Shown here piece by piece: positions 1 to 17,728 of a stretch of 25,936 nucleotides of DNA. The DNA lies in the IMG/VR virus record IMGVR_UViG_2778261085_000012, positions 1-25,936 of that record. One strand, given 5' to 3'. The translations under genes and the position numbers were made by a program. Every line of letters starts with the position of its first letter. Position 1 is the stretch's first letter. The stretch is from a virus (lineage: Duplodnaviria > Heunggongvirae > Uroviricota > Caudoviricetes). The notes beneath the pieces were generated by a model. The model did not search any database. It was given only the letters and a program-made list of their open reading frames with translations, and had not been told where the DNA came from.

Positions 1-570
1 CTATGCCGGAGGATATTTATTCATTCTTTCAGATATGTGAATGGAACGATTGTCGATTATATTTGTATCAAAAATAGTTACGGCAGGATGATTAAAACAG
101 ATAGAGTGTTTAGGTCTAAGTAAATGTAGTGTTTGCAATCTGGTTATCGCTGTGTTATCAAAATTTGAGAAGTCAACAACAAGATCTACATTCAGTTTTT
201 TTATCTTTGCTTTTAGTTCGTTAAATTTATTTTTCTCGTAAGATATAAAGGCATCCACGCCAACAATATCAGTAAAGAGGAATGATACTCTTGAAGGTGC
301 TATCACATATACCACCATACCGGATTTTTGAAGTTGTTTAATAAACCCTGAGGTAACGATGCCGTCACCAATGGCCTGCATGTGCATGAAAATGCACACT
401 GTTTTATAACTATCCGGCTGTAATGATGTTTTCCTTCTGTATCGCATTTTTAGAAATGCCAGTCTGGCCTTCGTCTTTATCTTTTTTGTTTTAATATTTC
501 GCTGTCTGTTAAGCTGTTTTAATGATGAAATAACATTCATAATGGTACCCTGAAATTCCAAATCACACAT
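1..570 (-). CDS. AT-rich cargo protein; resembles only the N-terminal domain of GT9 heptosyltransferase-type glycosyltransferases (possibly truncated)
   Basis: ORF 1..600 ends with a stop at 1-3; first codon of the track ORF appears to be TTG, first ATG about 570, start uncertain. Segment KTVCIFMHMQAIGDGIVTSGFIKQLQ...VVYVIAPS has the layout of a GT9 N-terminal Rossmann domain. GC content far below neighbouring phage genes. Occupies the P2 Z/fun cargo slot downstream of G. Confidence 0.4.
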   Translation of the reverse strand: MCDLEFQGTIMNVISSLKQLNRQRNIKTKKIKTKARLAFLKMRYRRKTSLQPDSYKTVCIFMHMQAIGDGIVTSGFIKQLQKSGMVVYVIAPSRVSFLFTDIVGVDAFISYEKNKFNELKAKIKKLNVDLVVDFSNFDNTAITRLQTLHLLRPKHSICFNHPAVTIFDTNIIDNRSIHISERMNKYPPA

Positions 571-634
571 GTCATCCGAAATGAGCAGGGTACTATACAA
601 AAAACTGGACTACAATGGTTTGAAATGAAAGCCT

Positions 635-1234
635 TTATGCTTGTTTACTCCTTGATTCCACTGGGGAAGCAGGCCACTCAATATCCGGTGCTCTTGATGT
701 ATCAACACGGTTCAGCAGCACTCGATACTTCTTCCATGCCACCAGTAACGATGTTTCTTCCTCTGTTGCAATATTCAAATCCACGGCATCCTGAAGTGGC
801 GAAATATGCTCACTGGCTACCTGCATGAGGCTGTTTTTTGTTTCTTCCGCCTCCCGTATCCGGAACACTTTTTCTGCTTCTGCATCTTTCACCCACGTTG
901 TGCCGTTCCACTTCTGAAACTCCCCTTCCGGGGATAACCAGGTGACATTTTCCGGTAATGGACCAAGTTCAGAAATAAATAACGCGCCCCCTGATGCCAC
1001 GTCATAAACCGTTTTACCACGATGATCTTCAACGAGATGCCAGGACGCCTTATCACTGTTGAAAATTGCCACGAAGCCAGCTGGAATATCTGGCGGAGCA
1101 ATATCAGTACTATTTGCAGGTAGACCTGTATGAGGTGGAATGTATGCATCACCTTCACCAATAAATTCATTAGTTCCGGCCAGCAGATTATAAATTGTTA
1201 TGGTCCGTGGTTGTTCACTCATTCTGAAATCCAT
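635..1234 (-). CDS. G: tail fibre assembly chaperone (Tfa, P2 gpG-like)
   Basis: N-terminus [48 protein letters not shown] and C-terminus [33 protein letters not shown] match enterobacterial Tfa proteins; track codon 1 appears to be GTG, ATG at codon 3 preceded by GAGG. Confidence 0.85.
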
Positions 1235-1242
1235 GTTCACCT

Positions 1243-2145
1243 CTACTTAATATCAGAGACAGAATATTGTTTATTGAGCGTATGGGTGTGAGCACCAATA
1301 ACGATGCTACTTCCGTGGCTATGTGCGCCAGAGATGACATTACCTACGGGATTTTCTGGATTAATCCGGTGTATATGCGAACCAGGGCGAAACCGGTTAT
1401 TAGCCTGATGTTGTATCAGTACATCATCAGCCTGATGTTCAGGGTTAATACAGACCTGCCCGGAACGGGAGCAATACGTCCGATAATCGCCGCATCCAAT
1501 ATATTTAGTATCCGCATAACGGCAAACAGAATTACCCGGACAGTATGCATATGTGCCAAATACTGCCGACTGGCGGGATTGTGCGTATTCCCAGTTAATT
1601 GATTCTGTTTTTTTATTAAAGTTATCCCATGCCTGCTTCATCTGCCGGGCAACACTTTCAAACGGAACCTGACCACATCCGGCTCCCATTGCAGGGAATA
1701 CCACCGTTTTTATTTTCCTGTCTGTCGTTGCGTGTTTATTGTGCTGAAAGATGGCAAGCAGAGCGGCCCAGGTTGCGTTATATACAGCGTCTGTTCCGTC
1801 AATTGTCAGCGGAACACGCATTGTTGGCGCATGTACCAGCCAGGGGTGATGATTATGCCCCGTTTCAATAACAAATGCAGAACCTACAGGCTGCTCGCCG
1901 AGATATTCACGAAGAATATGATTCTGAACGCGGGACTGTAACTGAGTACCGAAGAATGCGGTAATGGCGGCATCAACACCGCCATCCATCAGGCCGAAAC
2001 TGTTTGCCGCACTTACCATGCAGTCAAATTCCCTGATTGTTTCAAATGGCTTTCCGACAATATTCACATTATCTGCATTTGCGAATACCCGCTTAAATGC
2101 TTCAGCCATTTCTGTTACTGGTGCAGAAAGAATGAGCGTAATCAT
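1243..2145 (-). CDS. macro-domain (ADP-ribose binding/processing) protein with C-terminal HxH fibre-tip-like repeats
   Basis: Three macro-domain motifs: [65 protein letters not shown]-terminus SHIH...[18 protein letters not shown]. Start ATG overlaps the H stop codon (ATGA); stop lies a few nt before G. Confidence 0.7.
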
Positions 2146-4121
2146 GCAAGCCTCACAATATAGTTAAATGCGATGTTTTTGACGGTGTTTTCCGCGTTGC
2201 CATAAGCGGCAATGGTAATGGTGTGTGTATGCGAACCAATAGCGAGCGTATGTGTATGCGCACCTATTGCTACTGTGTGAGTATGAGCTCCTGCGCTTAA
2301 TACGCGATTACTTGCTGTCTTGCTTGTGTTAGTTGCATGCATTCCACCACCGGTACCGGGAGTTTCTGCGTATGCTGAAGTATTGTTGTAAGCAAAGTTG
2401 TGTGTATGTGCTCCGGTGTTATTTGTGGATTTAGTTCCGTAATCAAACGACGATGTGGTTTTCGTCCCCAAATCCGTACTGGATGCGCTGGCGCTGTGGG
2501 TGTGCGATTTAATGCCGTCCTGTTCCTGAGACAATACGGCTCGACCACTGGCAGGTTTGCCCTTAATCGTCCAGCCACGCATATCAGGGATCACGCCTGA
2601 CGGATAAGCGGCTGCAAGTTTCGGGTATGCAGATTTGTCAAAAGTCTGCCCCTGCATCAGGGCATAACCAGACGGAACGGTATCTGATGGCCACGGGATT
2701 GGTGCGCCAGGCGGATAAAACTGCTCTGATGGCGTATAGAGTGAATAAACTGTACCGTCCGTTAACCCTTCCGGCTTATTAGCAGAATATGCTGGTGACG
2801 TATGAATAGTCACGCTGGCATTACTGGTATAATCCCATTGAATATTTACACCAGTCGCATAATTTTCGATTGCAACGTAAATATCGTAAGTATCACCAGA
2901 TGTATTGACCCAGGCAAAATTTGTAAACCCTGTCGATGTGCGCTGCCATAAAGCACCAGTAATCCCCTTCGGATTACCATTACCTGCACGCAAAACAAGT
3001 TCAGATATACCTGCCTGTTGAGGTGAACCGACGTTATATCCAGCGCCACCAATCAACGTAATTGAAACAACAGAACTCGCCTGTGGCATGGTTACCGTTG
3101 CTAATTTGAACCAACCAGCACCACCGCTGAATGACATAGTTGTTGAGTTAAGCGTACCAATATCTTTCGGCGTCAGTGTAATATCCGCTGAAAGGGCCTT
3201 ACCATTCACCTTACGGGCAGAAGGTACCCGACCATTCGCATTGTCATTAGCTGCTTTCACTGCTTTCGGTGTCGCGGTAAGCGTTTCAGATGTGCTGTTA
3301 GTCGCGCTGCTTAGCTGGACAATCCCTTTTTGTGCTGTCGTAGCGTCCTGTGCAGTGTATTTCCCGTTAGCAAGGTCATACGCGGCCTTTACCGCTTTTG
3401 GTGTTGCGGCGAGCGTTTCTGAATCGCTGTTGGTGGCGCTACTGAGCTGGACAAGGCCTTTCCGCGCTGTAGTGGCGTCCTGCGCAGTATATTTCCCGTT
3501 AGCAAGGTCATATGCTGCCTTTACCGCCTTTGGTGTTGCAGCCTGTGTTTCAGACACGCTGTTAGTGTCGCTACTGAGTTGAACAAAGCCTTTTGCGGTC
3601 AGCGAGGCGTCCGGGTGACGTCGTGACTGTTCATGCTCTTTCAGTTTGTCATCCACGTAATCCACTGTGGCCATCACCATGGTGTTATCCACGGTAAGTG
3701 CCACAGTGGCAGTGCTGGATACGGTCAGAATGGTGCGAAATGTTTGTGCACGTCCTGATCCTTCGGCAACGGTAGGCTTGTAACTTTCGGCAGTATTGCC
3801 CACCGCGATTAAATCGCCGTGCTCATCAAACACACCAATTTCCCTGATCCAGAATCCGCCCGTTTCTGGAGGAATAACCAGCTCTGCAATAATGCGGTTT
3901 TGATGTGTTGCGTCCAGGATGACGCGATTAACAGTATGTCGCCACACCTCATGCACCAGACGGGTCTGCTTACTGTCTGGTGTGGGCAATGTACCGCCAC
4001 CGTCGCCCACGGCCATATGAGTCAGGCGGACAGGCTTACCATCTGGCGCGGCTGCCTGAGCTAATTTTTTGGCACCCGTATCGGTGATAACGGTTTTAAA
4101 TTTACGTGTTGTGGTACTCAT
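2142..4121 (-). CDS. H: tail fibre protein (P2 gpH-like)
   Basis: 659 aa; N-terminus [26 protein letters not shown]...HEVWRH...IAELVIPPE matches the conserved baseplate-attachment end of P2 H; three approx. 44-aa shaft repeats; C-terminal HxH repeats (AHTHN, AHTHT, AHTHT, SHTHT). Confidence 0.9.
3246..3593 (-). repeat. three tandem approx. 132-bp in-frame coding repeats in the fibre shaft of H
   Basis: Peptide repeat KG(F/L/I)VQLSS(D/A)TNS.SET(Q/L)(A/T)[25 protein letters not shown] occurs three times; the nucleotide repeats are visible directly. Confidence 0.75.
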
Positions 4122-4123
4122 GC

Positions 4124-4654
4124 TTAATCGTCCGGATAAATGGTAATGACTTCGCCGTCGTAAGTTGCTGCCGCCGCGAAAATATCTCCCTGAATCTCCT
4201 GAATGATATTCAGCCCTGTCATGTGGCGGCTGACCGGGCGGGCATCAGCAATCAACCGCTCCATTTCCAGATACATTTCCTCCGTCACGCCACTGTCCAG
4301 TGTGCCGACTTCAACGGTAAATGTTCCCGGTTCTCCGCCGAACTCCCACCACTCAGACACGCGAATGAGGTATCCCAGCGGCTCAATGGCCCTGCGCAGT
4401 GCGCTGATGGTCCCTTTGTGTCGGTGTATCAGCCATGCATCACGAATAACCTGTCGCTTTGTCTCTTCCGGCCAGTTGCGATCCCAGCGGTCAACGGAAA
4501 ATGCCCAGGCGAGATAGGGCAGCAGATGCACCGGGCAGGTATCCGGCGACCACAGTGTGTTGAGGTCTACCGGAATGTCTGTAATGCGTGTTCCGACGGC
4601 TTCGGCACAACGCATGAAATTGCTGGCTGATGGTGGTAACAGTGAATTACTCAT
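4124..4654 (-). CDS. I: baseplate protein (P2 gpI-like)
   Basis: MSNSLLPP...[25 protein letters not shown]...[19 protein letters not shown] collinear with P2 I; start taken at the internal Met of track ORF 4124..4687; short overlap with the J 3' end. Confidence 0.8.
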
Positions 4655-16452: not shown

Positions 16453-16764
16453 TTACTCAGGAAATAACGCCCGGATATTCCCAGCCATCTGGCTGGTTAT
16501 TTTAGCCACTGGTGCAGACTGTGCTTCAAACTTTTTTGAGCTGATTTGTGTCACAGGTAACATCTCATCATCAGCCCATGCGGCCAGTCGGTAAGCCTCT
16601 GCCGGATTCGTCTTCAGAAGTGCCAGCCCGGCCAGAAAAGCCACGCGTTGGCCGCTTTTGCGGGCTTCTGGTGTAAGGCTGTCCAGCCAGGCGCATGCTT
16701 CTCCTTCGTTCTTGACGGCAGCTGGCTTCAGATAGAAACTTATCCGTCTGGTTGGTGTCGTCAT
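16453..16764 (-). CDS. parR: ParR-like centromere-binding protein (plasmid R1 ParR/StbB family)
   Basis: 103 aa; RRISFYLKP...AWLDSLTPEARKSGQRVAFLAGLALLKTNP parallels the R1 ParR N-terminal region; located immediately downstream of the ParM-like gene. Confidence 0.65.
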   Translation of the reverse strand: MTTPTRRISFYLKPAAVKNEGEACAWLDSLTPEARKSGQRVAFLAGLALLKTNPAEAYRLAAWADDEMLPVTQISSKKFEAQSAPVAKITSQMAGNIRALFPE

Positions 16765-16768
16765 TGGT

Positions 16769-17728
16769 TTACTCCTTGTTCATTGCGTACAGCCCATTAA
16801 CCAGAGCAAACTGTGGCACCCCGTCCGCGATGAAAGTCGCATTAACTCCGCAGGCTTCGCGGATAGCGGGTGCCACAATCTCCGCTCCTCCACCGACAAC
16901 CATCACCCGCCCGTAACCCGAAAAACCCGCCAGCGCGCGGATCACGCGTTGTTTCAGTGTTTCCTCCTTTTCACGAATAACTGCCATCAGGCTGGCGTAA
17001 TGCGCGTCATTGTGGATGTGCTGGCGCAGCCAGGCTTCATCGTGGCGATGTTCGATAATGGTACTGGCGATGTGGTGACTGGTGCGCATACCGTTGGTGG
17101 CCATCACCGACAGCACGGCATCGGCCATCAGAGAAACGCCTACGTGTGGATCGCAAAACACCTGGCTGATACCTGCCAGTTGCCCCTGAACCTTTGCCAC
17201 ATCCAGCGTGGTTCCGCCCAAATCCACAATCAGCAGGGATTCAAACGGACTCATGCCAGCCAGTGCTTTAAAGCCAGCCGGAATGGATTCAGGCATAACC
17301 CGCACGTTACGGATAGTGAATGCCTCGCCGTTCTGGTACTCCACCGGGCGCATGACGTTCGCTTTTTTGCGGTTGATGTTGGCCATGTCCGGCTGTGCGT
17401 TTGTGTCGAAATACTCGCTCAGTGGCAGGGTGACAACCACATCCACTTCCTGTGGTGTGATACCTGATTTGACCAGCGCATGATGAATGGCAATCACATT
17501 CACATCGCTGTACTGGTATTGCGTGTCAGTTGTCTGAACAAAGCGATCGCTGACCGGATCAAAATCATAGCGCACGCCATCAATCATGTAGTTTGCGGGT
17601 TGCGTGCCACCGAACGGCGCAGACCATTCCGACTTGAAGCTGTTCGGGCTGATGGCGTTGCGACGTTCGCCGTTCTCAGTCCATGCCAGCTTGATGTTGG
17701 TGGAGCCGTCGTCGATACAAATTTTCAT
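16769..17728 (-). CDS. parM: ParM/StbA-like actin-family ATPase
   Basis: 319 aa; MKICIDDGSTNIKLAW..., YSDVNVIAIHHAL, MPESIPAG, LIVDLGGTTLD and VMVVGGGAE are collinear with plasmid R1 ParM. Confidence 0.85.
   Translation of the reverse strand: MKICIDDGSTNIKLAWTENGERRNAISPNSFKSEWSAPFGGTQPANYMIDGVRYDFDPVSDRFVQTTDTQYQYSDVNVIAIHHALVKSGITPQEVDVVVTLPLSEYFDTNAQPDMANINRKKANVMRPVEYQNGEAFTIRNVRVMPESIPAGFKALAGMSPFESLLIVDLGGTTLDVAKVQGQLAGISQVFCDPHVGVSLMADAVLSVMATNGMRTSHHIASTIIEHRHDEAWLRQHIHNDAHYASLMAVIREKEETLKQRVIRALAGFSGYGRVMVVGGGAEIVAPAIREACGVNATFIADGVPQFALVNGLYAMNKE

Follow-up and report, generated by a model that had tools for sequence, protein, structure and literature searches.

The stretch of DNA analysed here (the window) comprises 25,936 nucleotides (nt) of the virus record IMGVR_UViG_2778261085_000012, and the element under study is an open reading frame (ORF) of its minus strand encoding a 300-residue protein with an N-terminal macro domain. 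Three consecutive minus-strand genes are found at this locus: the tail-fibre gene H (2142-4121), the macrodomain gene (1243-2145), and a tail-fibre chaperone gene (635-1234). The initial annotation had described a 300-residue ORF between the fibre and chaperone genes, with a start codon overlapping the stop codon of H as ATGA. Both points hold, and the stop codon of the macrodomain gene is found 8 nt before the chaperone ATG. The gene itself is not new, as RefSeq annotates it as "macro domain-containing protein" in enterobacterial prophages. It encodes a Ymx7-like phage macrodomain with a unique, fibre-mimicking Cys/His tail, and is embedded in a fibre-chaperone cassette. The locus displays the following features, all on the minus strand:

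635-1234, minus: gene of a tail-fibre assembly chaperone of the lambda Tfa type, 199 residues (Caudo_TAP, 150 bits; PHROG 105)
1235-1242, minus: 8-nt spacer with AGGTGA, a Shine-Dalgarno-like sequence for the chaperone gene
1235-2143, minus: 909-nt segment absent from the loci without the macrodomain gene (STEC1585 and MS6193, with an otherwise 97% identical H-Tfa region)
1243-2145, minus: macrodomain protein gene, 300 residues including the Cys/His extension; TAG stop at 1245-1243
1276-1383, minus: His-repeat tail, residues 255-290 (HIH/HSH/HTH), with the same GxHxH unit as the fibre needle
1423-1545, minus: Cys-rich module, residues 201-241; C202, C208, C225, C232, and HQxDD are conserved in the alignment
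1591-2145, minus: macro domain proper, residues 1-185, Ymx7-like
2142-2145, minus: ATGA overlap between the macrodomain gene start (ATG, 2145-2143) and the H stop (TGA, 2144-2142)
2142-4121, minus: tail-fibre gene H, 659 residues (Pfam and PHROG 295 matches)
2211-2297, minus: three 9-residue GxHxH repeats of H, residues 609-637

The ATGA overlap is predicted to couple the translation of the macrodomain gene to that of H. At the other end, GAGGTGAAC separates the TAG stop from the chaperone ATG at 1234, from which the chaperone begins as MDFRMSEQ. A mechanical ORF list gives instead a GTG start at 1240; the ATG was chosen because of the junction found in Escherichia coli STEC1585, which lacks the macrodomain gene (see below). 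A consensus scan reveals no promoter-like or terminator-like sites at either junction of the gene, and its GC content (45-49%) is similar to that of the adjoining 3' end of H and of Tfa. Hence, it does not resemble a moron, which would possess its own promoter and terminator and a distinct composition, but overlaps or abuts both neighbours. With these plain junctions, and with the ATGA kept in all the loci parsed, the proposal that the gene is wired into the fibre expression unit is borne out. A programmed frameshift joining H to the macrodomain protein was considered and rejected, the junction being a plain ATGA devoid of a slippery heptamer.

The chaperone had been taken for P2 G; it is of the lambda Tfa type, as indicated by its Caudo_TAP match. 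Neither the Caudo_TAP nor the P2 G chaperone profiles match the macrodomain protein, this match belonging to the ORF at 635-1234.

Family, fold, and spread of the macrodomain gene

The macro domain had been called from three motifs, which are located at residues 46-58 (loop 1), 87-107 (VGSAF...VHAP), and 150-158 (FPAMGAGCG). Pfam Macro (PF01661) confirms the call with 68.2 bits for a cut-off of 22 (E-value 7.7e-19), matching residues 44-169 over profile positions 1-118 of 118. Furthermore, PHROG 2613 ("unknown function") matches the protein over its full length with 495 bits. Loop 1 reads N48-SFGLMD-G55-G56-V57-D58 and loop 2 reads G154-A-G-C-G158, both in agreement with adenosine diphosphate ribose (ADP-ribose)-binding loops, and residues N48, D54, G55, D58, G154, and G158 are conserved without exception in 103 homologues, both close and distant.

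An AlphaFold2 model of the monomer was built from the alignment of these 103 sequences. Its confidence (predicted local distance difference test, pLDDT) exceeds 90 over most of residues 1-185, is moderate at the β-hairpins of residues 211-225, and falls below 50 for residues 241-300. A model derived from only 16 close homologues (pLDDT 56) was set aside. The macro domain displays the three-layer α/β/α macro fold. In structure comparisons, the closest fold scores well above the lower-ranking Af1521 (14.9), PARP14 macro domain (14.8), DarG (14.7), and MacroD2 (13.5), and far above the macro domain of type II Thoeris ThsA, whose score of 8.3 does not support a close relation to that domain. Pfam Macro_2 (PF14519, the Ymx7 family) reaches 24 bits, slightly under its cut-off of 27, and the domain appears to be of a Ymx7-like class, set apart from those of AdfM and DarG. 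DarG models score 12-14 bits on the protein, which is not that of a DarG-type member, and PADLOC defence-system profiles yield no significant match. Ymx7 (YMR087W, PDB ID: 1njr) and Poa1p, both belonging to Macro_2, are yeast ADP-ribose-1''-phosphate phosphatases. Ymx7 is a cellular enzyme tied to tRNA-splicing by-products and, unlike the window protein, possesses neither a Cys/His tail nor a phage context.

The ratio of non-synonymous to synonymous substitutions (dN/dS) amounts to 0.09 in the macro domain, 0.18 in the Cys-rich module, and 0.48 in the His tail, indicating that the first two are under strong purifying selection. The macro domain is an ordinary and well-conserved module, probably catalytic, that would process ADP-ribose derivatives.

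The fibre-ATGA-macro-Tfa gene order is also found in prophage Gifsy-1 of Salmonella LT2, in the P2-like Salmonella phages SEN4 and SEN5, and in E. coli phage Chuche. The corresponding entries (STM2588.1n in Gifsy-1, gp19 in SEN4/SEN5, CDS0053 in Chuche) belong to PHROG 2613, and the Gifsy-1 record already states "contains pfam01661, Macro". These proteins share 64-85% identity with the window protein over their full length, with no essential difference beyond a His tail of varying length and sequence (proteins of 269-300 residues). At an identity of at least 80%, the gene is carried by 128 of the 5,426 RefSeq complete E. coli genomes (2.4%), always under the same RefSeq annotation. There, it accompanies lambdoid Stf fibres, P2-type H, fibres of P1-like phage-plasmids (with darA nearby), or an N15-like linear plasmid prophage. 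It is also found in a very large number of Salmonella genomes, and the protein database holds 1,712 relatives, chiefly from Salmonella, Escherichia, Erwinia, and Citrobacter. The initial annotation held that a macro domain at this locus is not a standard P2 component. This is true of P2 itself, which has no such gene; it is not a one-off, however, and the claimed unusualness was overstated, since the module is common and already annotated.

Around 60 IMG/VR loci were parsed. In every copy, the start of the macrodomain gene forms an ATGA with the stop of a fibre gene whose product ends in [KR]NI[AV][FY]NYIVRLA, and the same junction is found in Gifsy-1, SEN5, and Chuche. The upstream fibres vary from 411 to 1,177 residues, and Tfa starts either 8 nt past the macrodomain gene stop or with an overlap of 4 or 11 nt. 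Copies 100% identical to the window gene are found in three IMG/VR loci (L013-L015). The Salmonella form of the protein is 269-274 residues long with one or two HxH motifs, and the E. coli form 289-300 residues long with two or three. A macro-only form of 203 residues, 69% identical over residues 1-195, possesses neither the Cys-rich module nor the HxH tail. It occupies the same ATGA-coupled slot between fibre and Tfa (L145 3938-4546, L156 3938-4546, and L163 3935-4543), and its upstream fibre ends in NTAFNY[IL]VRLA. Neither the hidden Markov model searches nor the comparison across related loci revealed anything that would overturn the initial annotation.

The gene is accessory and mobile. 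E. coli STEC1585 and MS6193 harbor the same prophage region, with H (96.8% identity), Tfa (97.8% identity), and the glycosyltransferase gene located downstream, but without the macrodomain gene. The 909-nt segment is replaced there by a single base, forming a TAATG stop/start junction, and the H protein of the macro-less counterpart has the same length as that of the window. Furthermore, the fibre-to-chaperone query (window 600-4200) finds a full or partial match in 4,654 genomes, against 128 with the macrodomain gene. Given these numbers and the macro-less H and Tfa alleles, the fibre and the chaperone do not need the macrodomain gene. In Salmonella phage SEN34, a lone fragment of the Cys-rich module (L006 3501-3665, 60% identical over 55 residues) adjoins an O-acetyltransferase moron, far from any macro domain, and looks like a decayed remnant of the gene.

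Beyond this module, the macro domain belongs to a wider clade of stand-alone proteins of ~185 residues, with more than 6,000 members, also assigned to PHROG 2613. Among 43 non-redundant viral loci of this clade, a fibre gene lies upstream in four and Tfa downstream in three. In the remaining loci, the gene is located among small accessory genes or beside those of DnaB, primase, thymidylate kinase, methyltransferase, or UvsX. The nearest non-enterobacterial relatives, with 47-56% identity over residues 2-195, are single chromosomal genes (L181-L253) of Chloroflexota, Cyanobacteria (including Acaryochloris marina), Acidobacteriota, Rokubacteria, and Planctomycetota. For a gene carried by enterobacterial prophages, such cellular relatives are phylogenetically unexpected. 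The 113 neighbours of the chromosomal relatives span 144 Pfam families, none of which occurs more than six times, and no recurring partner gene was found around the 43 viral and ~70 chromosomal relatives. That the macro domain comes from cellular stock and is found in many phages and at many positions speaks for a biochemical function inside the cell rather than for receptor binding.

Some homologues from jumbo phages are labelled "tail protein". These labels were not retained as evidence: the genes lie among small hypothetical genes, and since these regions are non-structural, the label looks homology-transferred. Independent associations with fibre or virion genes are nevertheless observed in unrelated phages. 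A Collar-domain gene is located immediately upstream of a related macrodomain gene in a Devosia prophage (L010 5180-6561), a Collar-type fibre gene immediately upstream of another in contig L147 (2442-4474), and the macrodomain gene of Microcystis phage Mae-JY35 (L007 1478-4912) lies between those of virion and ejection proteins.

The Cys-rich module and the His-repeat tail

The Cys-rich module may possibly form a metal-binding β-hairpin unit, the AlphaFold2 model displaying β-strands at residues 211-225 with moderate confidence. No homologue of this module was found outside the present macrodomain family among 1.84 billion representative proteins. Two repeat-rich proteins, P0123 and P0126, came up as matches and were judged spurious upon inspection.

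The tail that follows contains HxH motifs at residues 257, 275, and 286. HxH motifs are of the metal-coordinating type found in the needle of T4 gp37. The initial annotation had noted that such repeats are of the kind ending the H protein, which is correct: BLASTP aligns the tail with the C-terminus of H at an E-value of 9e-5, and both possess the octapeptide IGAHTHTL. No Pfam fibre-repeat family matches the macrodomain protein, and the PHROG 295 fibre profile only reaches an E-value of 0.27. Over its last 45 residues, the protein is built from the 9-residue GxHxH unit of the neighbouring fibre. Compared with the needles of T4 gp37, lambda Stf, and P2 H, it harbors one to three repeats only and lacks a fibre shaft or tip domain.

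Among homologues, the number of HxH motifs ranges from 0 to 3, with the third one no longer present in the commonest E. coli allele (GTPTHT or GTPIHT). Judging from its dN/dS value, the tail is the least constrained part of the protein. No recent DNA copy of the fibre 3' end was detected in the tail, either in the window (best 15/16 nt) or in Izhakiella. When tails are compared to fibres, E. coli-type tails have a mean local alignment score of 58.9 with E. coli-type fibres vs 43.4 with Salmonella fibres. Salmonella tails match their own fibres no better than foreign ones (50.0 vs 48.1). Co-variation between tail and fibre thus seems weak, and it is confounded by the existence of just two main lineages.

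Izhakiella australiensis possesses three fibre-macro-Tfa copies in one genome (L178 2068-2967, L179 120-1019, and L180 120-1019). The macro domain is extended there by an unrelated Cys/His-rich sequence (CGC...CDCGCG...CRCG) that ends in fibre-type repeats, GRHNHYIYTGAHTHS...GAHHHGVKK, resembling those of its own fibre, GAHNHFIDMGAHGHS. Homology between the Izhakiella and Erwinia extensions is limited to the first 35 nt and the last 65 nt. A frameshift origin of the Izhakiella extension was rejected, as neither of the two other frames yields an open, related sequence and homology is confined to the flanks. The finding of two unrelated Cys/His tails with the same GxHxH repeats suggests that the feature has been selected for. 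We read the Cys/His extension as optional and acquired twice in different forms, with selection possibly acting on metal-dependent oligomerisation or on docking to the fibre or Tfa.

Candidate roles of the macrodomain protein

The reading that we favour, tentatively and at somewhat less than an even chance, is that of an enzyme produced late by coupled translation and acting in the cytoplasm as an ADP-ribose eraser or hydrolase, probably for counter-defence. The protein would be a macrodomain enzyme of Ymx7/MacroD type, accessory to the phage and spread by horizontal transfer, synthesised late in the lytic cycle from the mRNA of the fibre and chaperone, and translationally coupled. Its late timing is suggested by analogy with the known late operons of P2 (V-W-J-I-H-G) and lambda. 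The macro domain would bind the ADP-ribose moiety and, most likely, hydrolyse a substituent at its 1'' position. Candidate substituents are a phosphate, an acyl group, or a protein carboxylate, and the target might also be nucleic-acid-linked ADP-ribose or an ADP-ribose-derived small molecule. The enzyme would act in the infected cytoplasm, where it would neutralise an ADP-ribose-based host response acting on, or triggered by, late phage components. The C-terminal extension, with its four-Cys module and GxHxH repeats, would most likely serve metal-dependent oligomerisation; alternatively, it may dock to the fibre/Tfa assembly line and keep the enzyme beside nascent fibres.

Counter-defence is considered the most plausible purpose because of two precedents, AdfM and the link between fibres and type II Thoeris. 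Phage macrodomains have recently been found to act as erasers of defensive ADP-ribosylation. AdfM of phage T4 (Tk.4) erases the ADP-ribosylation set by DarT2 (10.1101/2025.11.20.689424), and so does AdfM of phage PhiKZ (gp104; PMC13309987). As in the window, AdfM is a phage-encoded stand-alone macrodomain, and it provides a functional precedent for an eraser of defence ADP-ribosylation. However, it belongs to another macrodomain class, is not encoded in a fibre operon, and lacks the HxH tail; no sequence similarity is detectable between the window protein and PhiKZ gp104. Tail fibres and their chaperones have been implicated only lately as triggers of ADP-ribose-signal immunity, with fibre and chaperone alleles setting the sensitivity of Pseudomonas N4-like phages to type II Thoeris (10.64898/2026.06.04.730250). 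Thoeris and the Tad proteins share with the present case the recognition of ADP-ribose derivatives, predicted for the window protein, and its link to tail fibres. The type II Thoeris signal is His-ADPR, which is sensed by the macro domain of ThsA, and Tad proteins are phage sponges of signals derived from ADP-ribose.

Several points weigh against this cytoplasmic, counter-defence enzyme. The aromatic residue of the MacroD G-[VIA]-[YF]-G motif is missing from its loop 2 (GAGCG), so that the domain might bind its ligand without catalysis. Early expression from a promoter of their own is usual for counter-defence genes, and a late gene cannot protect the incoming DNA. A fibre-type HxH tail that occurs in two unrelated versions is no less consistent with a structural association with the fibre than with a free cytoplasmic enzyme. 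Finally, full-text literature searches found no study of the function of this macrodomain family.

A virion-borne accessory of the fibre is a somewhat unlikely alternative. The HxH tail would trimerise in the manner of the gp37 needle, perhaps with Tfa, and join the fibre tip, the three macro domains thus displayed serving to bind a ligand or as an enzyme, with an effect on adsorption or host range. The position of the gene recalls that of the gp38 tip adhesin, which T2-type phages encode at the place where the macrodomain gene lies. Such an accessory would explain why the slot between fibre and chaperone genes, coupled on both sides, is kept in every locus, and why the tail is made of the 9-residue unit of the neighbouring fibre, down to a common octapeptide. 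The return of a fibre-like end on the different Izhakiella extension, with no DNA-level copy, the better fit of E. coli-type tails to E. coli-type fibres, and the Collar-type fibre genes upstream of related macrodomain genes (Devosia prophage, L147) point in the same direction. Yet these fibre and chaperone alleles also occur in prophages that lack the gene, and a tail-less form occupies the same slot. The tail is also the part with the highest dN/dS, its third HxH is lost in the commonest E. coli allele, and Salmonella tails show no preference for their own fibres. Besides, macrodomains bind intracellular nucleotides, to our knowledge no ADP-ribose-like receptor is known on enterobacterial surfaces, and the jumbo-phage "tail protein" labels bring no help, as they look homology-transferred. 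Altogether, the comparative evidence leans towards the cytoplasmic enzyme.

Two further possibilities would keep the enzyme near the fibre. As a helper of fibre maturation, which we regard as unlikely, the protein would strip an ADP-ribose or related adduct set by a host transferase on the nascent fibre or Tfa, or would aid folding, and would be needed only in the presence of that transferase. Owing to the tight coupling, it would be made from the fibre and chaperone mRNA, its fibre-like tail might direct it to the fibre/Tfa complex, and its accessory distribution would suit a host-dependent need; but the literature searched records no ADP-ribosylation of tail fibres, most of the macro domain relatives are encoded away from any fibre gene, and the present data do not separate this helper from the cytoplasmic eraser. 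Slightly less probable again, the protein might be a fibre-tethered eraser or sponge of ADP-ribose, assembled with Tfa through its GxHxH repeats beside or onto the nascent tip. It would then destroy or sequester an ADP-ribose-derived immune signal or adduct raised upon sensing of the folded fibre/chaperone complex by the host, in the way that type II Thoeris seems to work in Pseudomonas, so that trigger and antidote would form one exchangeable host-range cassette. The least probable of the explanations considered is that of a passenger with no role in the phage cycle, hitch-hiking in the most exchanged module (fibre tip and chaperone), with the His tail an old relic of a fibre 3' end, or else a gene serving the lysogen. 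Its location inside a swapped module, with P88-like homology stopping at 3245 (see below), its spread into four unrelated temperate phage types, the decayed SEN34 fragment, and the variable, partly degenerate tail could all be explained in this way. The low dN/dS values of the macro domain and the Cys-rich module, the invariant binding-loop residues, and the precise translational coupling kept in all loci speak against it, as do the absence of a DNA-level trace of a fibre-derived copy and that of a promoter-like site for expression in the lysogen.

The cassette harboring the gene is the most mobile host-range cassette of temperate enterobacterial phages, including Gifsy-1 of the model strain LT2. 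Were the protein a counter-defence enzyme, a phage exchanging its fibre tip could gain a means of evading immunity at the same time, and anti-defence that acts late and is tied to virion structure could be tested as a category of its own. Were it virion-borne, it would represent an enzymatic fibre accessory of an unexpected kind. Natural isogenic pairs with and without the gene, as well as model phages, exist and make the genetics easy.

Prophage backbone and neighbouring genes

The initial annotation placed the locus in a P2 context. This is right at the level of the family, and not for P2 itself, the backbone being P88-like: positions 3245-24182 of the window are 96% identical to phage P88 and its relatives (Peduoviridae). 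This homology ends at 3245, and positions 1-3244 form a swapped module that comprises the distal half of H, the macrodomain ORF, Tfa, and the glycosyltransferase gene.

The H protein is composed of a tail-collar N-terminal domain, three Phage_fiber_2 repeats, a Collar domain, and a C-terminal HxH needle. It matches Pfam Phage_tail_fib (183 bits), Phage_fiber_2 (193), Collar (47), and Phage_fiber (21.8). Five HxH motifs, all HTH, are found at residues 540, 572, 613, 622, and 631. The three Phage_fiber_2 repeats correspond to internal tandem duplications at 3243-3597, 80-84% identical as DNA, and the H protein of MS6193 has one extra repeat unit, being 44 residues longer.

Downstream of Tfa, a low-GC (33-37%) gene of a heptosyltransferase-like family 9 glycosyltransferase is located at 1-540 on the minus strand, and is probably a lipopolysaccharide-modifying moron. 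In STEC1585, the glycosyltransferase is intact with 392 residues; in the window, homology is lost at nt 16, and the ORF is only 179 residues long (ERMNKYPPA, then a stop). It is either truncated by a rearrangement or cut at the edge of the source contig.

Within the P88-like backbone, a ParM/StbA actin-like segregation gene and a Plasmid_stab_B gene are found at 16453-17728 on the minus strand, beside the replication gene A. A database protein of 463 residues (P0018) has ParM domains fused to the macrodomain protein, a fusion that is probably an artefact of assembly or deletion.

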